IMG/VR virus record: IMGVR_UViG_3300011441_000013
Coordinates: 1 to 54,528 of that record
Direction: 5' to 3' (one strand)
Length of the DNA stretch: 54,528 nucleotides
From: a virus
Taxonomy: Duplodnaviria; Caudoviricetes
Part shown: piece by piece, positions 2,484 to 50,971 of the stretch
Position numbering within the stretch: the stretch's first letter is position 1
Layout: each line of letters begins with the position of its first letter
The notes under the pieces: model-generated
Databases searched by the model: none
What the model saw: the letters and a program-made list of their open reading frames with translations, nothing else
Told to the model about the DNA's origin: nothing
Position numbers and translations under genes: made by a program

Positions 2484-2696
2484 GTGTTCGTGTTCGTCAC
2501 ATGGCTCTTCGCCCAAACTTTTCGGACTGACGTCGTCGGTCGTCTTGCGAAGCTCGCACAAGACAGCCAACGCTTTCCGCCTCCGCGCGTCTGGCGGCTC
2601 TACGCTTTTCTTCACTGGGCCGCCGACGATGAGACGTTGCGCTCCGCAGTCAAGCAAGCACACAATGAGTGGCGTCGACTGCGAGCGCAGCGATGA
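2484..2696 (+). CDS. YozE SAM-like small protein
   Basis: FVTWLFAQTFRTDVVGRLAKLAQDSQRFP...AHNEW resembles the YozE pattern; ATGA-coupled to the primase; start GTG 2484 or 2490. Confidence 0.55.
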   Translation: MFVFVTWLFAQTFRTDVVGRLAKLAQDSQRFPPPRVWRLYAFLHWAADDETLRSAVKQAHNEWRRLRAQR

Positions 2697-3739
2697 ACCC
2701 CGCCAAGTGGTTCCTTGATAACGGCATCCGCGTCTTTCCGATCAAGACGCGGGACAAGGTCCCAGCCTGCGCGTCGTGGGACGACTACAACGCGACGTCT
2801 GAAGAAGTCACCACGTGGGTCAACTACGGCGTTTGTCTTGGATTGCTTGGCGTCATCGACAGCGACACGCCTGAGGTCGAAGCCTGGACATCGAAGCATG
2901 CACCTCAGACCCCGTTCGTCGTCAAGACTGCTCGCGGACTTCATCGCTACTACCGACTGATCGGTGCGACGACGCACTTCATTCACCGAGCCGGACATAC
3001 GATAGAGTTCCGCAATCATGGTCAGTATGTTGTCGGACCAGGATCCGTTCATTCCTCAGGCTTCGTCTACACAGCGGAGAAATGGAGCTGGCAGATACGC
3101 GACGTTCCATTCTTCCCTGTGAACGACTTCCACTGGGACGATCGCTCGATCGAGCATCGCGGCTCTGCCGACGGTCAGCCGCTCATCCTGCCGCCCGCCA
3201 TTCATACAGGCGAGCGTCACGATCTGCTCTTCAAGCTCATGCGCTCATTGCAAGCTCGCGGCGTCGCGGACGTCGAGCAGATTCTCACGATCCTCAAGGC
3301 AGAGAACAAGGCGAAGTGCGTGCCGCCTCTCGATGAGGGTGAGCTGACGCGATACATCAGGCGTGTCGCCCGCTACAAGGACAGACCCGAGTTCACTCGT
3401 CAAGAGATCCTCGACCCAGAGGAGAGCGGGGCTGAGCTCGCCGGCGAGCTGATTGAGATCGGCGTCAGTCCCGCGGCAGCGGTCGAGGCAGCAAAGGCGC
3501 TCGACGTGAAGTTCGATCCCACCGGCGCCGCTCCGTCGAATGAGAAGCGACTCAAGGCGGAGAAGAAGATCGCCAGACTCGAGGCGAGGCTCGCCAAGGA
3601 AAAAGCGAACCTAGATGCCGTTGAACATCCTCTTGACGATGACTCAGACGTCATCGACTGGCCAGAGGCCGATGATGACGAGGTTCACGATGCGTCAGAA
3701 CTCATCGGTGGCGTAGACGACGTCGAGGAGATCGAGTGA
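2693..3739 (+). CDS. Bifunctional primase-polymerase (Prim-Pol) with PriCT-type domain
   Basis: VFPI..RDKVP, NYGV, VIDSD, TARGLHRYY, GQYVVGPGSVH; G-ERHD..F and N..KCVPPL PriCT motifs; acidic tail. Confidence 0.9.
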   Translation: MNPAKWFLDNGIRVFPIKTRDKVPACASWDDYNATSEEVTTWVNYGVCLGLLGVIDSDTPEVEAWTSKHAPQTPFVVKTARGLHRYYRLIGATTHFIHRAGHTIEFRNHGQYVVGPGSVHSSGFVYTAEKWSWQIRDVPFFPVNDFHWDDRSIEHRGSADGQPLILPPAIHTGERHDLLFKLMRSLQARGVADVEQILTILKAENKAKCVPPLDEGELTRYIRRVARYKDRPEFTRQEILDPEESGAELAGELIEIGVSPAAAVEAAKALDVKFDPTGAAPSNEKRLKAEKKIARLEARLAKEKANLDAVEHPLDDDSDVIDWPEADDDEVHDASELIGGVDDVEEIE

Positions 3740-5091
3740 CCGTCGCCGACCTCAATCAATCATATGCCATCGTCGGCGTCGGCAACCGCACGGTCATCAT
3801 GGAGCTTGGCGTCGATCGGTCGATCGTCGAGTTATGGGACTTCGATCACTTCAGAAAGAAGCTCATCAAGGAAACTGTCCGCGTGCGCCTTCCTGATGGC
3901 AAGATCAAGGTGATGGGGCTGGCGGACTTCTGGCTCAAGCATCGTCAAGGTCGTCAGTACAACAAGCTCGTCTATGCCATGCCAGGCTCTCGTCAGCAGG
4001 CAGGACCAAACGACTACAACGGGTGGCAGGGATTCTCCGTCGAGCCGAAGCCTGGCTGCTGGGACCTCAACCGCGAGCACATTCGTCACATCATCTGCAA
4101 CGGCGATCCATTCGCCTTCAAGTGGGTGATGAACTGGAGCGCTGCACTGATTCAATTTCCCGGACGCCACGCCTGGGTCGCGCTCGTCATGAAGAGCGGG
4201 CAAGGCACCGGCAAGGGGCACTACGCCAACAACATGATCGGTCGTCTCTTCGGCCCTCAGCAATACATCCACATCTTGGGCAGTGGTCAGCTGACCGGAG
4301 AACACAACGAGCACCTCTCGGGCAAGTGCTTCGTCTTCGCCGATGAGAGCACCTGGGGCGGAGATCCCAGAGCCGCAGCAAAGATCAAGGGCCTCATCAC
4401 CGAGGACACGACGCCCATCCATCGAAAGTTCCTGAAGATCGTCGACGAGCCCTCCATGTTGCACATCTGCATCGCCAGCAACAACGAGTGGCCCATTCCG
4501 ATTGAGCCAGGCGACCGTCGATTCACGGTCCTCGAGGTCTCGGAAGAGAAGAAGCAAGATCAGAGATACTTTGGCCAGCTCCTCGCCGAGCTGAAGAACG
4601 GCGGCCACGCGGCCATGCTCGCCGAGCTTCTGGAACATGAGATCGACGACGACATGCTCCGCATCCCCTACAACACAGACGCGAAGGCAAGCGTCGCCAT
4701 TCATACACTGAAACCAGTCGAGCATTGGTGGTTCTCGTTGCTCCAGCGTGGTGCAATCATCAACGAAGAGTGGCCATACACGATGGTGAAGCGCAATCTG
4801 CACGACAACTACATGGCGTTTCTCGATCGTTATCATCCACACAATCGGGAACGCAAGTCGACTGAAATGGAGCTTGGTTGGTTCTTGAAGCGGCACGCTC
4901 CCATCACGCAGCAGAAGACGCTCAATGGCAAGTCAGAACGTGTGGTCACCATCCCTCCTCTTGATGTTTGTCGCCTCGAGTGGCTGAAGTCAGTCGGCTG
5001 GAGGCTGACATATACGTGGAAGGTCGACGATGAAGTTGAGCCTGAAGATGACGGTGGGCCGCCGCCGCCGAAGGACCTCGAGGAGATGTAA
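3736..5091 (+). CDS. Primase-associated SF3/D5-type helicase (DUF5906-like)
   Basis: Walker A GQGTGKG, Walker B VFADE, IASN, DRRF. Confidence 0.85.
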   Translation: MTVADLNQSYAIVGVGNRTVIMELGVDRSIVELWDFDHFRKKLIKETVRVRLPDGKIKVMGLADFWLKHRQGRQYNKLVYAMPGSRQQAGPNDYNGWQGFSVEPKPGCWDLNREHIRHIICNGDPFAFKWVMNWSAALIQFPGRHAWVALVMKSGQGTGKGHYANNMIGRLFGPQQYIHILGSGQLTGEHNEHLSGKCFVFADESTWGGDPRAAAKIKGLITEDTTPIHRKFLKIVDEPSMLHICIASNNEWPIPIEPGDRRFTVLEVSEEKKQDQRYFGQLLAELKNGGHAAMLAELLEHEIDDDMLRIPYNTDAKASVAIHTLKPVEHWWFSLLQRGAIINEEWPYTMVKRNLHDNYMAFLDRYHPHNRERKSTEMELGWFLKRHAPITQQKTLNGKSERVVTIPPLDVCRLEWLKSVGWRLTYTWKVDDEVEPEDDGGPPPPKDLEEM

Positions 5092-41664: not shown

Positions 41665-42135
41665 TCACAACCTTTCGGGGAAACCATACTCCACAGACTT
41701 CTTGTTGAACGCCTCTCTGATGCACTCGACCAGGTCGGCGTCAACTCTGGCGCACAGCAGCACGCCGTAGATGATCACATCGGCTACTTCCATGCCAATC
41801 TGCTTGCGGTAGCACTGTCTATTATTCAATGACAGGCCCATCTCGTATGATCGACTGTCGATGTTCGCGATCTGGTCCTCCACTCGTTTTAGTTTCTTTG
41901 CCGCATTGGCGGCCTCACCTGCCTCGCCGCACATCGCACCGGCCCACTCGAGAGGCGACCAGCTGTCGAGTGAGTGCCAGCGCGCTACGCGAGAGATGTT
42001 GGCGGCGATCAACTCTTGGAACGTGAGGATCGGAAACACGTCGCGGCCGCTATAGTGATAGCCGCAGGAGCATGGAACGCCAAGTTCAATGACGTTGTCG
42101 TTACCACAGTTGGGACACTTCCAGGAATTAGTCAT
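41665..42135 (-). CDS. MazG-like nucleotide pyrophosphohydrolase with N-terminal zinc ribbon
   Basis: GEAGEAANAAKK...EVADVIIY; WKCPNCG...CSCG. Confidence 0.85.
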   Translation of the reverse strand: MTNSWKCPNCGNDNVIELGVPCSCGYHYSGRDVFPILTFQELIAANISRVARWHSLDSWSPLEWAGAMCGEAGEAANAAKKLKRVEDQIANIDSRSYEMGLSLNNRQCYRKQIGMEVADVIIYGVLLCARVDADLVECIREAFNKKSVEYGFPERL

Positions 42136-42300: not shown

Positions 42301-43065
42301 TCAATCTGGAAACTTCCCAATCATCGCCTGACGAGCGATCTGCTTGATCTCATCGGAGAATGTTGACTTCGATCCGCCCATCCACTTCCAGTAGTCGGAA
42401 TCGGCGTCTCGCATTGGCTTGCCTTGATACTTGCCAAACATGATCATGGCGACGCCATCGATTCGGCGAAAGAACCCCTCACAATCGATGAAGTCTGGCC
42501 ACTGCGCCTTGTGAAGTTCATCAAGATCACGTGACAAGATCTCATGCATCTTGAGTTGCCCAATGATGACGGCGTGGGATGCCTTCACGTCAGCCAATGC
42601 TCCGTGGGCATCGACGAGATCCACGCCGGTGTATTTCCTGTAGAGCGTGCTGAGATCTCGTGGGATGGCGAGAGCTTCCAGTCTGAAGCTGTCGACGATC
42701 CGCGCTCCGACGTAATCCCATTCTTGACTGGCGCGCTTCATCTCGTTGGCGATGATCTTCAAGTCGAAGCGTGTCTGTTGACCGCCGTAGTCACATCCGA
42801 CAAGACCCTTCGCCAAGTTCGCCGCCAGTGCCTGGAATCTTGGTGCGTTCTTCACCATCTCATCGGTGATGTGATGCACCTTCGTCGATGCTGATGGGAT
42901 TGGGATGCCTGGGTTGACGTAAGTTCGCCACTCCTTCGTCATGCCGGTAGCGTCCCAACGTTGAAATCCGATTTCGATGATTCGATCGGTTCTCGGATTG
43001 ATGCCGGTCGTCTCAGTGTCTAAGATGAACAACGGACGGGTGAGCGAGAGCAGTTCATTGAGCAT
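42301..43065 (-). CDS. DnaQ-like DEDDh 3'-5' exonuclease
   Basis: LDTETTG, RFD, HGALADV; C-terminal FGKYQGK. Confidence 0.9.
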   Translation of the reverse strand: MLNELLSLTRPLFILDTETTGINPRTDRIIEIGFQRWDATGMTKEWRTYVNPGIPIPSASTKVHHITDEMVKNAPRFQALAANLAKGLVGCDYGGQQTRFDLKIIANEMKRASQEWDYVGARIVDSFRLEALAIPRDLSTLYRKYTGVDLVDAHGALADVKASHAVIIGQLKMHEILSRDLDELHKAQWPDFIDCEGFFRRIDGVAMIMFGKYQGKPMRDADSDYWKWMGGSKSTFSDEIKQIARQAMIGKFPD

Positions 43066-43447
43066 GAGTTCTCCGAACGAAGTCCAACACGAAGCGATGA
43101 TCGAATCCATCGACGACCTCAACATCTTCTTCATCTGGCGTCAAGATGCACGTGCGTCGATGCGACAAGACATCTTCGTAGAGCACGACGTAACAGATGC
43201 CATTCGCAGCCAAGCGTCGACAGGTCAGCTGCTGAAGGGCGTTGGCCCAGACAACCTTCTCGCCGTGCTTCAATTCCCACCACGTGTCTTTCTTCTTCCA
43301 CGTGATGCTGATGTCTGGTGATCCTGACGTGAAGCCGTCTGAGTGCTTGATGATGACTGGCTTGGAAGCGTACTGCAATGCTGTTTCTGAAGCGAGCTCC
43401 GCACGAAGCAACTCAAGAAGTCCAGCTTGCAGCTTGCTCTCCGTCAT
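43055..43447 (-). CDS. PD-(D/E)xK nuclease, VRR-NUC/resolvase-like
   Basis: MTES.LQ, GSPDI, WWELK, LQ. Confidence 0.8.
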   Translation of the reverse strand: MTESKLQAGLLELLRAELASETALQYASKPVIIKHSDGFTSGSPDISITWKKKDTWWELKHGEKVVWANALQQLTCRRLAANGICYVVLYEDVLSHRRTCILTPDEEDVEVVDGFDHRFVLDFVRRTHAQ

Positions 43448-43761
43448 AACTTGACCAGTCGATGATCGAGGTAGTAGTAGACGGGGAAGTTCAACGCGAC
43501 CGCGACGTAGAGTTCAAGCTTGGCGCCCTTTGAGCCAGACCAGCCAGGCAACAACACGAGCGCGATGTCGTCATACTTCAACATCATGATGAGATCTCTT
43601 CTGAGCGAATCTTCCCACGAACGCCCATCGCTCGGTGGTGAGATCTCGTGTGGATTCAGCACTGAATGTCCTTCACATCGCAAGACGGCGGCAGCCTCTT
43701 CGAACGCTGGCCTGTTGTGAAGAGGGACATCTGACATCGGACCGCTGAGGTAGATGGTCAT
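43444..43761 (-). CDS. DUF4406 (nucleoside deoxyribosyltransferase-like) protein
   Basis: IYLSGPMS...N...F, VLNP, LLPGWSGSKGAKLE. Confidence 0.88.
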   Translation of the reverse strand: MTIYLSGPMSDVPLHNRPAFEEAAAVLRCEGHSVLNPHEISPPSDGRSWEDSLRRDLIMMLKYDDIALVLLPGWSGSKGAKLELYVAVALNFPVYYYLDHRLVKL

Positions 43762-44225
43762 TTGCCTTCCAACTGCTTGAGGATCAACTCTCGCATCAGT
43801 CGGCGATACGCCGCTCGATGCGAGAAGGATGCTGCGGCGTCGCCTGGGATCGTCTCCACCAGCGGCGGTAACATTCGTGGAATCTCTGTGAGCAGATGCT
43901 CGAAGAACTCATCTGTCAACAGATCAGCGTCCGTCTTGCTCATCTTAAATCTCCTTCCGATGACGTCGAGCTGATCTGAGATCAACTTCGACAATGATGT
44001 TTTCTGCTTGTCGGCGACCTTCTTGAGACAATCTTTCGTCTCTTGTCTGAGATCGACGCCGACGTAGGCTGGACGGATTTCTTGTGGCTTCCAGATTCCA
44101 GCCGCGACGACGATCTGACGAACACGCTGACCCGAGAGCTTGTAGCGCTCAGAAAGCGCTGCGATCGTCTGGCCCTCAATGTAGAGCTTGCAAAGTTCTG
44201 TGTTGCGTTCGGCGAAAGTCATCAT
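43758..44225 (-). CDS. DNA-binding protein (HTH plus RHH-like)
   Basis: G.TIAALSERYKLSGQRVRQIV; VGVDLRQETK..L...A.....SLSKLI. Confidence 0.7.
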   Translation of the reverse strand: MMTFAERNTELCKLYIEGQTIAALSERYKLSGQRVRQIVVAAGIWKPQEIRPAYVGVDLRQETKDCLKKVADKQKTSLSKLISDQLDVIGRRFKMSKTDADLLTDEFFEHLLTEIPRMLPPLVETIPGDAAASFSHRAAYRRLMRELILKQLEGK

Positions 44226-45292
44226 CAGCCTCTCATCGTCATGATCACATTGATGAAGCTGACGCCATCAGCAACAAGCAACGGCGACTTGTCACTCTTC
44301 ATCCCAATGGTGACGGTGTCTCCTTCGGCGACGTCCAAGAAGTCATGTAGATAACGCCAGTTGACACACATGATCAATGGATCGCCTTCGTAGTGCGCTG
44401 GCATCTGTTCATCGGCTTCTCCAACCTCGACGCTCTTCGACGAAAGACTGAGCGATTCCGAACTGATCGAAAGATACACAGCGCAGTTGTTCTCTGCGGC
44501 GACGCCGATGCGCTTCAGCGCGGCCGACAATCGCTTCCTGTCGACGGTCAATGTTTTGTTGTTGTCGCGTGGGATGATTCGCTCGTAGCTTGGAAACTTC
44601 CCCTCAATCATGCGTGACGTCAGCATCATGCCGTCGATCGAGAAGAACAAATGGTTGGCGCCAACCAGAACTGAGATCGGTCCTGTGCCAAGCACTGGCA
44701 GAATGTCCATCGTCTTGCGCGGAATTAGGATGGCGAAGTCTGGCCCTTCGTCTCGCACAGCAGTTGCGATCGATAGACGAGCACCGTCCGTCGCAATCAT
44801 GCCCATCGAGGTGCCGGAGAGCTTCAGCAATGCTCCTTCAAGTATGAACTTCTTGCCGCGATCAGCAACTGCGTAACGCGTTGCAGTGATGAGACGCATC
44901 AACAAGTTTCCTGCCAGCGTTGCTGGTTCACCTTCTGGGAATGCCAACGTTGGAAACTCAGCAGCTGGCAGCGTCTGTAGTCTTGACTTGAAGGTGGCGT
45001 GATGCACATGAGCACCCTTGGCATCAACAGCGATCGTGACGGTGCCGTCGGTAAACTGCTCGATTAGTTGAAGAGTCGTCGCAGCTGGCAATACACATCG
45101 ACCAGGCGTCGAGATTGTAGCTGGACATGTGAGCGCCAAGCTGACCTCAAGGTCTGTCGCTGAAAGACGGAGTTCATGATCGGCTTCGACCAGGACGTAA
45201 CCAAGAATCTGAATCGATGGCTGTGATTGGACAACTTTGCAGACGGCGCGGAGTGCCTCTGCAAGTTTCTGTGAGTTCACCGTGACGATCAC
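44225..45292 (-). CDS. dnaN: DNA polymerase III beta sliding clamp
   Basis: ATDLEV, EFP, ATDG.RL, SRMIEGKFPSYERIIP, N..YL.DFL, VIMTMR. Confidence 0.93.
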   Translation of the reverse strand: MIVTVNSQKLAEALRAVCKVVQSQPSIQILGYVLVEADHELRLSATDLEVSLALTCPATISTPGRCVLPAATTLQLIEQFTDGTVTIAVDAKGAHVHHATFKSRLQTLPAAEFPTLAFPEGEPATLAGNLLMRLITATRYAVADRGKKFILEGALLKLSGTSMGMIATDGARLSIATAVRDEGPDFAILIPRKTMDILPVLGTGPISVLVGANHLFFSIDGMMLTSRMIEGKFPSYERIIPRDNNKTLTVDRKRLSAALKRIGVAAENNCAVYLSISSESLSLSSKSVEVGEADEQMPAHYEGDPLIMCVNWRYLHDFLDVAEGDTVTIGMKSDKSPLLVADGVSFINVIMTMRG

Positions 45293-45822
45293 AACTGATC
45301 ACCCATGCAAGTCCATCCATCTCTCTGTTTGCGTGCGAACAACTCAACACGCGGACCGTCGAACAACGACTCGACAATCTTGTAGAACTCATCCGGCTTT
45401 TCTGAATGACGCCCAACTGTTGCCGAGAATCCAGTCACGTCGATGACGAACGTCGAGCGTGTTGAGTGATTCAAAACTTGTGGCTTGCCGCGCGTGGCGA
45501 TGAGACACGTCTCATGCTCAGCACGCAGAGTTCTTCCCATCCCAAACCATCTCATCCCATGTTCGGTTTTCTTCAGCCAGATGAGCTCCGTCTTGACGGT
45601 GAACCCCCACATGCGACAAACGTCAAGTGCCGCCTGTTGCATGCTCGCGACGCGCCAGAGAAAGAGCACACAGTCGGCGGCGAGGGGCGGCAGAGGGAAG
45701 CGGCAGATCTCTTCAAGCGTCATCGTAGAGTAGTGCCGTGCGGCACCGCGATTCTTGCCTGGAAGTTTGTCAGAGAACTTCCACGGCGGATCCGCCGCGA
45801 CGACGCGAAATGGTTCGCTCAC
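45289..45822 (-). CDS. MT-A70-family adenine methyltransferase
   Basis: ADPPW, HY.TM, LFLW, W.K, G.G...R..HE, HSEKP, ELFAR; GTGA-coupled start 45822. Confidence 0.92.
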   Translation of the reverse strand: MSEPFRVVAADPPWKFSDKLPGKNRGAARHYSTMTLEEICRFPLPPLAADCVLFLWRVASMQQAALDVCRMWGFTVKTELIWLKKTEHGMRWFGMGRTLRAEHETCLIATRGKPQVLNHSTRSTFVIDVTGFSATVGRHSEKPDEFYKIVESLFDGPRVELFARKQRDGWTCMGDQL

Positions 45823-46259
45823 CGAGTTCGCTCCACGATGTTCTTCATGAAAACCATCGCCAGCTGGACGTTTGCTGGATCGTTCCACCATCTGTTGATG
45901 CCAGATGGATGTGGCACGACTCTCACGTCTGCACCGCCGATCATCTGCTGGACGAAGTAGTCATGATGAGCATAGAACGCATCAGCGACGCGCAGGCCAA
46001 GCAGGATCACAATTTGATCGGACTTGAAGGTTGTCTTGAGCGCGGCCGCCTCGCCCTTCGCCGCCTCGATGTCAAACTGGAATTCATGCGCCGCTGTGTC
46101 TTGCCGATGGTGCAACAAGTTCACTCGATCGAAGTGATACAGAAACTCTGGCAGCGTCAGTCCGGCCATCGACGCCAGCCGTAGACCGATTCGACCTTCG
46201 ATCGGCTGCTCAAGTTGTTGGTTCTTCGACGGCGCCTCGCCGATGATGAGCGGCTTCAT
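45819..46259 (-). CDS. Uracil-DNA-glycosylase-superfamily protein (minimal)
   Basis: IIGEAPS, G..L, N, VILLG, VPHPSG. Confidence 0.8.
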   Translation of the reverse strand: MKPLIIGEAPSKNQQLEQPIEGRIGLRLASMAGLTLPEFLYHFDRVNLLHHRQDTAAHEFQFDIEAAKGEAAALKTTFKSDQIVILLGLRVADAFYAHHDYFVQQMIGGADVRVVPHPSGINRWWNDPANVQLAMVFMKNIVERTR

Positions 46260-46712: not shown

Positions 46713-49700
46713 TCACTTGCAATCTGCCCACGTCGGGCCGATCTTGCCTTCCCATAGGATCGGCACTCGCATGTTGGGGAAGCTCTGATGATTCAGAATC
46801 TCCATCATCGCCGGCAGCGTTCCTTCATCGTTGGCATCGCCAACGAGTTCATCGTGTGCCGTGATGCGCATCAAGAACCCAGTTGCCTTGCGTACCTTAT
46901 GCAAGTCAACTGTCTTTCGCTTCAGAATGTCTGCGCCCGTGCCTTGAATGACACGGTTCAATCCGATGTAGGTCTTGTAGGCGTTCGGAAAACGTGAGCG
47001 ACGTCCAAGCATCGTCTTGACGAAGCCACGATGCTGGAATTGCCGATGCATGGCGTCATTGGGCCTGCAGTATTCATCGCAGGCAGGCTTCGCAAGATGC
47101 GCGGCTCGGGCCAGCAGCTGATCGCCTTCCGGCATCATCTTGCTGTAAGCTCTCTCGATCTCATGAATCGTGTTGAGTCGTGGATCGTCCCACCTCTTTG
47201 CTCGACGAATCTCCGCGCCGATTCGTTCGGTGATGAACCTCATCATCACGGCGAGCTTGATACTCTTGGCGCCATACTGCCGGGCGAAGTTGAAGTTCTT
47301 CTGATGACTGTAGACCATGTCGGCCTTGTATGCCTTCATGCGTTCCCACGTCATCTTATGAAACGACAGCCGCGGATCTTTTCTGTATGCCTCAATCATC
47401 TCCATGTTCTTGGCGAGATGAACGAAGATCCGATACTCGATCTGCATGGCATCTGACGCCAATGCAATGCCTGTCGCCGACCTGAAGAGGCGGCGCGGAA
47501 ACAACGCACACAGTCCTGCACAGTCATCGACTAGACCTTCGCCGAACGCCTTGTGATGATTGTCGTGGTTTGGCACCTGCTGAACGTAGCCAATCGAGAA
47601 GCGACCGCTGACCGTGCCACCGTCATCGCCACGCAGTTGATTGATCTCAAAGCGGAGAATCCCGTCTGGGCCGATCTGCTCTCTGTAAGGCTTGAATACC
47701 TTCGAGTTAAGCGATGCGTACTGCGCCGCCTTCTGCCCCTTGCGCACCAACGGATGATCGATCTCTTCCAGTGCAGCTTCGTCGAACGCATCTGGCGTCG
47801 GCAATCCAAGCTTATCGAGCAGTCGCGTCCACCCCGTCGCTGTATGATCGAAGGCGAAACCGATCTCCTTGGAGATGTCCCAGACCAATTGATCATGTGT
47901 CGCTAAACATTCAGCTGCATACTTTTCGAGCAACTCCATGTCGATCGGAGCACCATTCTTCTCCATCTCTACGACGGCTGGGATGACCTCGTCTTCGAGA
48001 TCATGGACGGCACGAAGATCTTGCTCGTCGATCTGTGGCTGGAGCTTGGCGGTGAGCTTGGCAACAAGTTCTGCCGTGAAGCGTTCACGTTCAGCAACAT
48101 CTAACGCATGATGATTTGCATGACGTGATTCATCAACTCTTGCCACGATTGGAACGTCCGGCAAGTATTGCTCTGCCAATATGTCAATCGCGAACCGCTT
48201 GCGATGGTCATCGAGCAATGCCGCCGTGTGTTGAATATCCGAGAACGTGCAGCCTTGCTCTTCAAGATCGACGTCCCAGACCCTCGCCATGTGGCAGTCG
48301 AACTTCGTCTTGGCGTTGACGATCCTCTTGTGCTTGAGTTGCTCTTTCGCCCACCGCTTGATCACCGCTTCATCATGATTGCCTCCGTAGGCAAAGCCGA
48401 AGGGCAGAAAGCGGATCATCTGACCATCGAGCGTTCCAACGGTGAGACCGACAGGCCGATCGCCCTTCGCCCAGTCGAGGCCAGATGTGGCGAAGTTCAA
48501 GACGACCGCGTCGATACCTGTCAGGTCGGGCGGTTCGTCAGGCTTCCAGTCGGCATCGAGCTTAGTTGATGGCGTGCCGATGAATTCGATTGCCGTTGGT
48601 GCCGGCGGTCCTACAAACATCGGTGCCTGCGATACAGGGACCGTTGGTTGATCAGCAGCCGTCTGTGCTGGATCGGCGATCGTGATCAGCTCAGGCTTGA
48701 GCGCCTTGATCTTGATCAGATCGTCGCCGCTGAGCTTCGTTGCATTGCTGGCGAAGAGTTTTCCATCACGCGTCAGCAGTCGATGTCCCTTTGCTTCCAG
48801 CTCGGCTTTGAAGAGCTGCGCCTCGGAGGGGGCCACAGGGGGCGACAGGGGCGGCTCTGGAGCTGCCTGGACGGCCGTAGCTTCTACAGGCCTGGCTCTA
48901 GCCAGCCCAACCCGTTCGGTAGCTGTGGCAGGCTGCTCCAGGGTGGTAGGCACCGAGGCGAAGTCCAGCGCGGACGGGCCTATTCTACCGGTAGCAACTA
49001 CCCTCAACGTCGAGTTCGGCTTGAGAGTTCCAGCTGGTATCGTCAACTCTCCGCCAGGCATCACGCCGAGCGTCAATCCAAAGTCGTCGCCCTCTGTGAT
49101 GACGACGCCTTCTCTCATGACGAGATGATTGTGATCGGCGAAGTGCCGATAGTCAACCTGATGCTGCCAGCGACGCCACTTTCGCTCAACGCTTGTGCGA
49201 TCTGGATGTTGCTCCAGCAGCGACTGAGCCATCAACCAGCGGCCATCCTTCTTCAGGATCTCGCGACCTACGTCGCAAGGTCCTGGATCGATTCCCTTGT
49301 AGCCATCGAGACACCGTCGACACTGCTCGCAGTTGGCGGCATGATCTTGCCACTCATTGGCCATCGCCTCGACGCCGGCGTAGAGTTGGTCAGTGTTGCC
49401 GCCCTTCATCGTGAGCGTCGGCTTCTTGTACATCAAGAACGCGTTGAAGAGTGCGGTGCACCAACGCCCTTGATACCCGTTCTGTGGAGTGGCACCATCC
49501 TTCAAGATGCGAAGCGAGAGATCTGTGTCCTCATTGTAACGTCCGCGCCATCGGATTTGATTGCCAGCGAAGTCAGTCAGATCGTTGCGAAGCAAGATGC
49601 CGGAATAGCAACGAGTGTTCAATGTGATCGGCTTGATCTTTGCACCTTGCTTGCGCGGCGCGAAGTAGTCGTAGTTGAACGCCGCCATTGGAACATTCTC

Positions 49701-50345
49701 GTAGCGATCGACGAAGTCCTCGACGAGCTTCAACAAGATGCCGGAGTCAACCTCGACCTTGAGGTTGTCTTGAAAGCGACAGAAGCCAGAGATGTTGTCG
49801 TCGAAGATCCAGTGCCGTTCAGCGCCGGTGCTGATTGCATGCTCCCATACCCAATTACGCGCTGGGATGCCGCCGAGCCCAAGGTTCGAGAACGGCAGAA
49901 CGAGGATCTTTGCAGGATCGATGACGGCGGCGTAGTCGTTGAACTCCTGCGGCTCGATGACGATATGATATGGGACGCCGGTGAACTCAAACGCCTTCGA
50001 CGTCAAGCGGGTGTCGGCTCTGCTCTTCGAGATGATGTAGACCGGGTATCGAGGATTGCCCTTCGCGCCAGTCCAGACCTTGTCGGCTGCAGTGCCGATC
50101 GTCGCCTTCGGATGCCAGATGAACTTCGTGTTTGAATGAAGTGCTTGACCAACGAGCGTAGCGAAAGTTTGACGATCTTCCTGTGTCTTGAAGTGCACGT
50201 AGATCGACTGCCACGGTTCGAGCTTCTCGTGGCTATACTCTGGCATTCCCTGCCAGTTGTCCTTCCAGTCAGGATCGACCTCGAACAAATTGTCTTGTTC
50301 TTCGCTGCCCGGCAGCGGCGCGTCGTCGCGTGGATCGTCACTCAT
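46713..50345 (-). CDS. Fusion: TAGT/GREB1-like glycosyltransferase + linker + degenerate 3'-5' exonuclease + family A DNA polymerase
   Basis: YPVYIISKSR, VIEPQE...Y, ARNW.WEH, HW.FDDN, WRGRYNEDTDLSLR.LK, KGGNT; PolA motifs SGRFS, DAMQIEYR, KNFNF...YG, N.VIQGTGAD, HDEL. Confidence 0.9.
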   Translation of the reverse strand: MSDDPRDDAPLPGSEEQDNLFEVDPDWKDNWQGMPEYSHEKLEPWQSIYVHFKTQEDRQTFATLVGQALHSNTKFIWHPKATIGTAADKVWTGAKGNPRYPVYIISKSRADTRLTSKAFEFTGVPYHIVIEPQEFNDYAAVIDPAKILVLPFSNLGLGGIPARNWVWEHAISTGAERHWIFDDNISGFCRFQDNLKVEVDSGILLKLVEDFVDRYENVPMAAFNYDYFAPRKQGAKIKPITLNTRCYSGILLRNDLTDFAGNQIRWRGRYNEDTDLSLRILKDGATPQNGYQGRWCTALFNAFLMYKKPTLTMKGGNTDQLYAGVEAMANEWQDHAANCEQCRRCLDGYKGIDPGPCDVGREILKKDGRWLMAQSLLEQHPDRTSVERKWRRWQHQVDYRHFADHNHLVMREGVVITEGDDFGLTLGVMPGGELTIPAGTLKPNSTLRVVATGRIGPSALDFASVPTTLEQPATATERVGLARARPVEATAVQAAPEPPLSPPVAPSEAQLFKAELEAKGHRLLTRDGKLFASNATKLSGDDLIKIKALKPELITIADPAQTAADQPTVPVSQAPMFVGPPAPTAIEFIGTPSTKLDADWKPDEPPDLTGIDAVVLNFATSGLDWAKGDRPVGLTVGTLDGQMIRFLPFGFAYGGNHDEAVIKRWAKEQLKHKRIVNAKTKFDCHMARVWDVDLEEQGCTFSDIQHTAALLDDHRKRFAIDILAEQYLPDVPIVARVDESRHANHHALDVAERERFTAELVAKLTAKLQPQIDEQDLRAVHDLEDEVIPAVVEMEKNGAPIDMELLEKYAAECLATHDQLVWDISKEIGFAFDHTATGWTRLLDKLGLPTPDAFDEAALEEIDHPLVRKGQKAAQYASLNSKVFKPYREQIGPDGILRFEINQLRGDDGGTVSGRFSIGYVQQVPNHDNHHKAFGEGLVDDCAGLCALFPRRLFRSATGIALASDAMQIEYRIFVHLAKNMEMIEAYRKDPRLSFHKMTWERMKAYKADMVYSHQKNFNFARQYGAKSIKLAVMMRFITERIGAEIRRAKRWDDPRLNTIHEIERAYSKMMPEGDQLLARAAHLAKPACDEYCRPNDAMHRQFQHRGFVKTMLGRRSRFPNAYKTYIGLNRVIQGTGADILKRKTVDLHKVRKATGFLMRITAHDELVGDANDEGTLPAMMEILNHQSFPNMRVPILWEGKIGPTWADCK

Positions 50346-50971
50346 CGGCTTGCCGTGAACGCCCGCTTACGAGCAGAGACTACAGTCAACCCAGATTCTT
50401 CAAGGTAACGACGCACGTCGGCGATGCGCTGCTCACGATTGGCGATTGGATGGAACTCGATGAAGAGCGACCTCACGCTGCGGAGATCTCCAGGGCACAA
50501 GCTTGCGAGCAAGTCGTACTCGGCGCCTTCGACATCGAGCTTGAGGACAGAAGGCCGCAGCGTGAGCAGAGAGCGGCGGAAGTTGACCGCCGACACCTCG
50601 ATGAACTTCATTCGGCGCGTCTGCGGCAGAATGCTGTTCGCGCCAGAGAATCCAGACAAGTTCAACGAGACGGTTGAATCATTTGATGCGACGAGCGCCG
50701 CCTCGATGACGCCGATCTGTTGATAGCGGCTGCAGTTCTGTCGAAGCATCGCGGCGTTCTTCGGCGCGGCCTCATAGCATGTGACGTAGGCGGCGCCTTG
50801 CTCGACGCAGGCGATTGCGAACGTGCCGATGTAGGCACCACAGTCCATCACGGTTGCGCTGCGTGGCAGCTCGAGATGCTCGAAGGGGTTGTGCTTCTCC
50901 AGATCGTTGCGTAACCAGAACGCAGACGTCGGAATCATGAAGCTTGATGGAAGAACGTCCCCGTAGCGCAT
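50342..50971 (-). CDS. FkbM-family SAM-dependent methyltransferase
   Basis: VMDCGAYIGTF, CYEA, LKLDVEGAEY, IEFH. Confidence 0.9.
   Translation of the reverse strand: MRYGDVLPSSFMIPTSAFWLRNDLEKHNPFEHLELPRSATVMDCGAYIGTFAIACVEQGAAYVTCYEAAPKNAAMLRQNCSRYQQIGVIEAALVASNDSTVSLNLSGFSGANSILPQTRRMKFIEVSAVNFRRSLLTLRPSVLKLDVEGAEYDLLASLCPGDLRSVRSLFIEFHPIANREQRIADVRRYLEESGLTVVSARKRAFTASR

Follow-up and report, generated by a model that had tools for sequence, protein, structure and literature searches.

A TAGT-family glycosyltransferase fused to a family A DNA polymerase in a phage genome suggests replication-coupled DNA glycosylation

Why should a phage carry a sugar-transferring enzyme in the same polypeptide as its DNA polymerase? 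The question is raised by one gene in IMG/VR record IMGVR_UViG_3300011441_000013, a complete virus genome of 54,528 bp (CheckV completeness 100%) that was analysed over its whole length and is referred to here as the window. The gene lies at 46713-50345 on the minus strand and encodes 1210 residues, in which a candidate clamp-binding motif, a small domain called N95 here, a TAGT glycosyltransferase domain, a linker, an exonuclease-like domain and a family A polymerase (PolA) domain follow one another. A first-pass annotation had proposed a glycosyltransferase-polymerase fusion in an uninterrupted 1210-codon open reading frame (ORF). Translation bore this out, giving 1210 codons and a stop in a frame that is open throughout, and every motif string that had been quoted was found in it. 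In this frame the start codon shares the sequence ATGA with the stop codon of the gene upstream, and homologues start at the same N-terminus. Profile searches, which had been suggested as a check, placed the Pfam families TAGT (PF20691) and DNA_pol_A (PF00476) in this single protein, and PHROGs assigned phrog_842 to residues 98-320 and the DNA polymerase family phrog_17 to residues 644-1210. The fusion is thereby confirmed, and the picture is sharpened by the candidate clamp motif, the N95 domain and an exonuclease-dead PolA in the same chain.

The glycosyltransferase assignment is supported by both profile and predicted fold. The TAGT domain (residues 98-426, 49068-50054(-)) matched PF20691 at residues 100-316 with E 4e-33 and 115.5 bits, against a Pfam cut-off of 27.5 bits, and the match spanned profile positions 1-205 of 205. 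When the TAGT profile was run against all six frames of the genome, the score was 119.8 bits. An AlphaFold2 (AF2) model of residues 1-470 had a mean predicted local distance difference test score (pLDDT) of 75.9, with most 10-residue blocks of the core averaging at least 90. Foldseek retrieved GT-A enzymes as top matches to this model (best E 5.7e-6), and VIA gave Z scores of 12-14 to GT-A enzymes, including 5ggf_A at Z 13.9 with a root-mean-square deviation of 3.6 Å over 193 aligned residues; among the matches listed, 50 of 50 were glycosyltransferases. A comparison of the TAGT profile with PDB sequences returned 0 matches. The full-length profile match and the GT-A fold uphold the membership of the TAGT family that had been proposed from motifs alone.

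Acidic clusters of the DxD type participate in metal and nucleoside diphosphate (NDP)-sugar binding in GT-A enzymes in general. Across 43 fused and free relatives, 30 columns of residues 98-426 are invariant, among them D182 D183 N184 and D273 T274 D275, and the window protein keeps all 30, both acidic clusters included. A predicted GT-A fold and a retained DxD-type motif in the N-terminal part were what the earlier annotation had anticipated, and the invariance of these columns in fused and free forms alike argues that the domain is under enzyme-like constraint. In an alignment of 32 fused relatives, our selection from 41 of the window's type, few other regions of the fusion are conserved as well as the TAGT stretch, where column identity rises to 0.87. 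Within the domain, a Cys-rich insert (residues ~326-365, 49251-49370(-); C339, C342, C345 and C357) has 3-4 Cys in 30 of the 32 aligned PolA-fused relatives and is absent from the free forms in alignment A1. The Cys pattern makes it a possible zinc site.

The remainder of the chain reads as a polymerase with a disabled proofreading module. A Pro/Ala-rich linker (residues 427-507, 48825-49067(-)) is poorly conserved, with column identity of 0.26-0.36 in the 32 fused relatives, and its pLDDT is below 50. It leads into a conserved mini-domain (residues ~508-557, 48675-48824(-)) that is alignable in 32 of 32 fused relatives and that, like the Cys-rich insert, is particular to the polymerase-fused clade. 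No Pfam match was found for the mini-domain; the best candidate, YhzD at E 0.2, was rejected, and with Pfam offering only this, an initial suspicion of a docking-type domain was dropped. The exonuclease-like region that had been noted earlier is present at 47946-48533(-), but it is degenerate: the ExoI carboxylates are lost, with N617-F-A-T620 where intact relatives read D-x-E-T. N-F-A-T occupies ExoI in the window protein and in 41 of 53 PolA fusions, and D-x-E-T is kept in eight distant fusions. The PF01612 exonuclease profile had no match in the fusion protein at E<=1.

The family A polymerase domain (46716-47945(-)) matched PF00476 at residues 853-1208 with E 1.7e-22. The complete motifs A, B and C that had been read from the sequence were recovered (A, D965/E970; B, K1016; C, H1164-D-E1166) and align with 51 relatives. 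Among solved structures the domain is closest to 7pbk, labelled 'DNA polymerase I' (E 4.4e-15). The best tblastn matches to the polymerase half, at 24-27% identity, came from the group of phage family A polymerases to which DpoZ-annotated enzymes belong; they lie in Klebsiella phage VLCpiS6a, Salmonella phage PMBT28 and Acinetobacter phages, where one polymerase has the DpoZ annotation. The window protein differs from these in the loss of the ExoI carboxylates and in some 600 additional N-terminal residues. A Z-genome was considered because the nearest cultured relatives include phages with a DpoZ annotation, but the idea was rejected since the window genome has no match to PurZ (adenylosuccinate synthetase, searched at E<=1). 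Further downstream lies a DnaQ/RNase T-like exonuclease (42301-43134(-); PF00929, E 5e-21; phrog_192, 'DNA polymerase exonuclease subunit') that probably supplies proofreading in trans. A phage beta sliding clamp with all three DNA_pol3_beta Pfam domains is encoded at 44225-45292(-), and clamp and exonuclease lie beside the fusion in the same order in three related loci (L002-L004). An ExoI-less PolA together with a separate DnaQ-like exonuclease and a phage clamp resembles a Pol III-style division of labour.

Because the genome was assembled from a metagenome, and the contigs in the runs compared have a low depth of about 2-8, two adjacent genes might have been joined by a chimeric contig, or a frameshift or stop between them missed. 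Contigs from three other public runs argue against this. One (run X2, record 4) spans 47395-49299 and differs by 1 substitution, another (X3, record 10) spans 47269-49302 and differs by 37, both with 0 gaps, and a third (X4, record 22) spans 48811-50345. The runs have their year and their habitat label in common and could stem from a single campaign. The linker is therefore bridged without gaps, and the stop or frameshift that the first-pass annotation had named as a risk was not seen in it. Indels in the contigs of other runs are limited to two that compensate each other, the loss of one base at 50157 and the gain of one at 50168. This pair, seen in runs X3 and X5, lies 11 nt apart in the N95-coding part and rewrites about 4 codons while keeping the frame.

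The same fusion also recurs in databases. A homologue search limited to proteins of 665-2118 residues gave 81 long relatives, 54 of which carry PF20691 and PF00476 together by precomputed Pfam assignments. The fused homologues share 33-69% identity with the window protein, and its polymerase half was matched by BLAST in 53 of the 81 at 24-81% identity. Four IMG/VR loci (L002-L005) each keep one open frame of 1117-1252 residues. With a single frame kept by dozens of independently assembled homologues from several sources, an assembly artefact is for practical purposes refuted. Among 50,697 cultured-phage records, 305 matched the fusion protein and 0 of these 305 covered 80% of its length, so the fused form is known only from metagenomes. 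The first-pass annotation knew of no described fusion of this kind, which agrees with the literature searched, a scope that leaves aside supplements and Iyer et al. 2013; within it, PMC8256090, PMC13229309, the Pyle preprint, PMC13326640, PMC13216743, PMC9599517 and PMC4276943 describe no glycosyltransferase-polymerase fusion.

The TAGT domain had been said normally to stand alone, and this holds: only L002-L005, 4 of the 80 IMG/VR loci that we fetched, encode the PolA fusion. Joining to polymerases has nonetheless occurred in more than one form. Seven of nine tested long proteins first classed as 'TAGT-only' contain a phrog_1252 DNA polymerase with family-B-like motifs. A phrog_1252-type member weakly matches the solved chain 1s5j, 'DNA polymerase I' (E 3.6e-4), which we take to be an archaeal family B enzyme. 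In protein P0049, a clear family B polymerase occupies residues 72-653 and N95-TAGT lies C-terminal of it, the opposite domain order. No contig carrying a B-type fusion was found in the search with P0070, and alignment A3 matched the N95-TAGT part alone. In a FastTree phylogeny of 159 TAGT domains, architecture labels require 24 changes where 5 would be the minimum possible; the NFAT-type PolA fusion requires 4, of which the starred branches force at least 3. These counts are approximate, since the tree was built quickly and contains several long branches. Further fusion partners of TAGT, likewise linked to DNA, are ParB, UDG, Bet, an N6/N4 methylase, radical SAM, a GT1 glycosyltransferase and FkbM with ParB. 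The physical coupling to replication that had been proposed is strengthened by the recurrent A- and B-family polymerase fusions and by the predicted clamp-binding motif described below. In two loci, L007 (957-2561) and L013 (9551-11038), a ParB-like N-terminal domain precedes N95 and TAGT in one protein, a further means of attaching the transferase to DNA.

N95 (residues ~24-95, 50061-50276(-)) has no Pfam family. A full HMMER search with residues 20-97 retrieved 1914 cluster representatives at E<=1e-3, of which 294 also passed E<=1e-10; they are mostly stand-alone proteins of 80-180 residues. In a Pfam scan of 150 sequences (the query and the best 149), TAGT was the only recurrent co-domain with 21 occurrences, followed by PolA (2), ParB_N (2) and FkbM (1). 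N95 accompanies TAGT in 71 of the 80 loci. In 14 the two share an ORF, in 50 N95 is encoded by the ORF adjoining TAGT on the upstream side, and in the remaining 7 by a different upstream ORF, which overlaps the TAGT frame in 6 cases and lies ~900 nt upstream in 1. It was not detected in the other 9 of the 80. Modelled alone with AF2, N95 reached a pLDDT of 83.8 with little secondary structure; Foldseek found nothing in the PDB at E<=0.001, and the ESM Atlas yielded only viral 'hypothetical protein' clusters (score 0.86).

Bacterial beta-clamp-binding peptides follow a short consensus of the Q-L-x-L-F type. A candidate of this kind, Q17-D-N-L-F21 (50283-50297(-)), precedes N95 in a stretch with pLDDT below 50. 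The pattern Q-x-x-[LMI]-F occurs upstream of the W-x-G-M-P-E-F core in 75 of 149 N95 relatives, compared with 3 of 331 control windows in the same proteins, at a spacing to the core of mostly 14-16 residues (range 11-18). Most of the other relatives have near variants, and the strict form is present in 30 of the 81 long relatives. A complex of the phage clamp dimer with residues 1-100, predicted on our own alignments, scored 0.65 where the best of 3 controls scored 0.00, and so passed a mark attained in 58 of 80 cases by solved complexes and in 2 of 110 by mismatched pairs. Runs agreed in at least 50% of contacts, the partner pLDDT was at least 61, and the lowest-error contacts joined residues 15-20 to clamp residues 168-173, 309-311, 337 and 349-353. 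The N-terminal motif is thus predicted to dock in the pocket of the phage beta clamp; as clamp-peptide complexes have already been solved, the pass may reflect likeness to known structures. A second short motif, Q573-A-P-M-F577 (48615-48629(-)), stands before the exonuclease-like domain. Of the 32 fused relatives, 23 have a [LMF][FY]x motif 37-43 residues ahead of ExoI, compared with 64 of the 609 control windows, and 4 have the strict Q..[LMI]F form, which hints faintly at a possible second clamp motif.

The free modules were also placed in their genomic context. Downstream of TAGT in the 80 loci, a terminase large subunit is commonest, with three clusters in 41, 8 and 6 loci, followed by portal families in 19, 7 and 6 loci, one representative of each cluster having been annotated. 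Cultured carriers (tblastn, E<=1e-3) comprise 25 records, including T4-like Aeromonas phages, Vibrio phages Kuja, henriette and 1.076.O and Tenacibaculum phage PTm1, and RefSeq names the homologues beta-glucosyl-HMC-alpha-glucosyltransferase. The TAGT gene lies between portal and head-morphogenesis genes in Vibrio phage 1.076.O and among replication genes in henriette 12B8 and GD1. The N95-TAGT module behaves like a mobile orphan modification gene. The henriette 12B8 homologue (L085, 4001-5145) is unannotated, and stands between clamp-loader and dUTPase/DNA polymerase genes; its match is split in two, and the gene may contain a frameshift or have been overlooked. Vibrio phage Kuja (Ackermannviridae; L084, 2443-5131) has two tandem paralogous N95-TAGT genes of ~450 residues each, adjoining a 'DNA end protector' gene.

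What would such a transferase act on? The known hypermodifications of pyrimidines build for the most part on a hydroxyl that is already present, as a rule on 5-hydroxymethylcytosine (hmC, 5hmC) or 5-hydroxymethyluracil (hmU, 5hmU), and 5-hydroxycytosine (5hoC) is a further hydroxylated base, made by a ThyA homologue (PMC13326640). The first-pass annotation had presumed hydroxymethyl-pyrimidine substrates. This premise is unsupported by the genome, which at E<=1 has no match to Tet_JBP, Thymidylat_synt (ThyA-like), Thy1/ThyX, the C5 DNA_methylase or the 2-oxoglutarate (2OG) oxygenase families 2OG-FeII_Oxy_2 and 2OG-FeII_Oxy_3. No base-replacement enzyme was found in it either. The absence extends to relatives. 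In the 49 viral records behind the 50 longest-contig loci of the 80, Tet_JBP was found in 1 of 49 and ThyA-like genes in 0 of 49; in a second sample, 35 loci on contigs above 20 kb out of a separate set of 80 matched with alignment A3, both were found in 0 of 35. Together this gives 1 of 84 for TET/JBP and 0 of 84 for ThyA-like genes in records from which shorter contigs were left out, with 21 of the 84 at least 90% complete. The TET model is not blind, since the single phage copy, ~40 kb from its TAGT gene, was detected at E 9.4e-27. Given chemistry that begins with a hydroxyl and no match to a precursor enzyme, the expected acceptor has no visible source here, although such an association is a trait of genomic context and no sequence requirement for TAGT membership. 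Among cultured N95-TAGT carriers, 4 of 5 tested, the larger phages, have a ThyA-family gene, and the 47.9-kb Vibrio phage 1.076.O has neither a TET/JBP nor a ThyA-family gene. Because these genes are absent, the acceptor is probably not the product of the known TET/JBP or thymidylate-synthase-type hydroxylating pathways.

Some 65% of glycosyltransferase contigs are reported to be without a neighbouring 5mYOX or ThyS, and glycosyltransferases to adjoin polymerase, clamp and terminase genes (Pyle preprint). Solitary TAGT homologues are counted in 288 of 753 phage genomes (PMC13216743), and in pelagiphages such a TAGT-type gene lies close to the DNA polymerase (PMC9599517).

Our argument draws on things observed: the architecture, the predicted fold, the conservation, the recurrence of the fusion and the absence of known precursor enzymes. 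We propose that an active replicative family A polymerase would drag a catalytically intact, NDP-sugar-dependent GT-A glycosyltransferase along DNA, held there by two tethers: a covalent one, the flexible linker between transferase and polymerase, and the docking of the N-terminal Q-x-x-L-F motif and N95 on the phage beta sliding clamp. The N95-TAGT pair, free-standing in most phages, would here and in many relatives have been welded to the polymerase, and newly synthesised phage DNA would be glycosylated at or just behind the fork, with the neighbouring DnaQ-like exonuclease probably proofreading in trans. DNA as the target, the timing of transfer, clamp binding in vivo and the sugar are steps that we infer. 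Were they correct, replication might leave no unprotected window for restriction or CRISPR, as the first-pass annotation had suggested. A precedent exists in phage T4, where the alpha-glucosyltransferase (alpha-GT) co-purifies with the gp45 clamp and is proposed to add glucose while replication proceeds (PMC13216743). These data are best explained by a transferase that is tethered to clamp and polymerase and glycosylates nascent DNA at an unknown acceptor, a reading whose probability we put at roughly 0.55. Replication-coupled DNA glycosylation in the wider sense, which includes the case of a hidden precursor considered next, is the best-supported mechanism and is quite likely.

Several points weigh against this proposal and feed its rivals. 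The characterised TAGT reactions covered by PMC13216743 and PMC13326640 all use a hydroxyl-bearing acceptor, and no recognisable enzyme for a hydroxyl-bearing base exists in the complete genome or in 83 of the 84 related records. Most free N95-TAGT modules adjoin terminase and portal genes, not replication genes. The nearly fixed spacing of Q-x-x-L-F to the N95 core means that the motif could be a structural part of N95 and not a clamp motif. GREB1, a family member, is reported to glycosylate protein (PMC7968844), and phage phiJL001 carries a T6-type gene, yet its DNA is reported to be cut normally by restriction enzymes (PMC4276943). The classical pathway, that of T-even phages and base J, might still operate if TAGT glycosylates 5-hydroxymethyl- or 5-hydroxy-pyrimidines supplied by an unrecognised phage enzyme or by the host. 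This is the known chemistry of the family: the T2/T6 enzyme belongs to PF20691 (PMC13216743) and the kinetoplastid base-J glucosyltransferase (JGT) is reported to act on 5hmU. The ThyA-family genes of the larger cultured carriers point the same way, and several small conserved genes of no assigned function flank the fusion. Against it stand the TET/JBP counts (0 of 1 for the window genome, 1 of 84 for its relatives, with that copy far from TAGT), ThyA-like genes in 0 of 85 genomes including the window's and the 21 that are at least 90% complete, no ThyX or generic 2OG-oxygenase match in the window, and the small Vibrio phage that lacks both TET and ThyA; we regard this pathway as unlikely.

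We think it similarly improbable that the clamp-docked TAGT modifies a protein, be it the clamp, the polymerase or another replisome or host protein, and so regulates or hijacks replication. The GREB1 precedent, the digestible phiJL001 DNA, the lack of a DNA acceptor pathway, the predicted position of the N-terminal module on the clamp surface and the location of some free modules among head genes would all suit such a role. However, almost every fusion partner is a domain that tracks or modifies DNA and not a regulator, the fusions with a second glycosyltransferase and with FkbM resemble the glycan-building DNA hypermodification clusters outlined in the Pyle preprint, and no target can be named. 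A TAGT part that is only an accessory of the polymerase, binding DNA or nucleotide sugars or serving processivity or as a scaffold without catalysis, might be entertained because the adjoining exonuclease-like domain is degenerate and probably inactive, so that dead domains are tolerated in this protein. With 30 of 30 family-invariant columns retained, both acidic clusters among them, and the TAGT stretch so highly conserved, we hold this to be very improbable. A bolder extension can be put tentatively: the N95-TAGT module, with its at least 1914 sequence clusters and usually free-standing, may be a self-sufficient clamp-riding DNA glycosyltransferase that needs no prior hydroxymethylation or hydroxylation, the polymerase fusions being its most extreme replication-coupled form. 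This extension we consider doubtful.

Comparison with known systems places the fusion more precisely. The T2/T6 beta-glucosyl-HMC-alpha-glucosyltransferase is, like the window domain, a PF20691 member with a GT-A fold and a phage enzyme acting on phage DNA (PMC13216743). It differs in being free and in extending a glucose already present on 5hmC in phages that make 5hmC, whereas the window TAGT is fused to a polymerase in a genome without a match to an hmC pathway. No T-even phage appeared among the 25 tblastn matches at E<=1e-3, which makes the T2/T6 enzyme a distant cousin. JGT and GREB1 belong to the same Pfam family as the window TAGT. Both are eukaryotic and have no N95 partner, clamp motif or polymerase; JGT depends on 5hmU made by JBP, and GREB1 is the reported protein O-GlcNAc transferase (PMC7968844). 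The closest functional analogue is T4 alpha-GT with gp45, a clamp-binding DNA glycosyltransferase proposed to work alongside replication (PMC13216743), although its GT-B fold, unrelated sequence, non-covalent association, different clamp type and 5hmC acceptor set it apart. The share of modification contributed by alpha-GT is reported to be set by expression level more than by clamp binding (PMC13216743). ParB-dependent T-dioxygenases follow the same logic of coupling a base modifier to a DNA-loading or DNA-sliding module (PMC13229309); there the tether is ParB and not a polymerase or beta clamp, and the chemistry is oxidation.

The genes around the fusion offer further observations. The upstream gene, translationally coupled through the ATGA overlap, encodes an FkbM-type methyltransferase (50342-50971(-); PF05050, E 8.4e-11) that might act as an accessory sugar O-methylase. 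One metagenomic protein, P0058, joins TAGT, FkbM and ParB in a single chain. An obligate partnership was rejected, as no FkbM gene was found to adjoin the fusion in L002-L005. Closely following the polymerase on its downstream side are an MT-A70-type adenine methyltransferase (45289-45891(-)) and a small UDG-superfamily protein (45819-46259(-)), whose longest ORFs overlap by ~70 nt; in the distant relatives P0059 and P0060 a UDG domain lies within the TAGT-PolA protein. Possible nucleotide-pool enzymes are a DUF4406/nucleoside 2-deoxyribosyltransferase-like protein at 43444-43761(-) and a weak MazG-like match at 41665-42135(-) (E 5.3e-5, under the Pfam cut-off). On the opposite strand, a Prim-Pol/PriCT_1 primase and a DUF5906/VapE-type helicase at 2669-5091(+) adjoin the terminase genes and stand apart from the main replication module. 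A tRNA scan of the 54,528-bp genome found none.

The usual picture of phage DNA hypermodification is of free enzymes that act on pre-hydroxylated bases after replication. Here a modifier has been built into the replicase repeatedly, in different polymerase families and with a motif that resembles a clamp hook. The combination of fusion and hook would be the clearest genetic argument so far for fork-coupled DNA modification in some phages, and one polypeptide plus a clamp makes a simple system for testing such coupling. The fusion also draws attention to a very large TAGT clade with a dedicated, previously unnamed partner domain, in genomes without a known route to the acceptor; there is either a precursor pathway or an acceptor chemistry still to be discovered. 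Self-sufficient glycosylation, if true, would be a new chemical class of DNA modification, directed at canonical bases or at a universal feature of DNA. A polymerase that tolerates or produces glycosylated DNA and carries its own transferase could also serve the enzymatic synthesis of sugar-decorated DNA.

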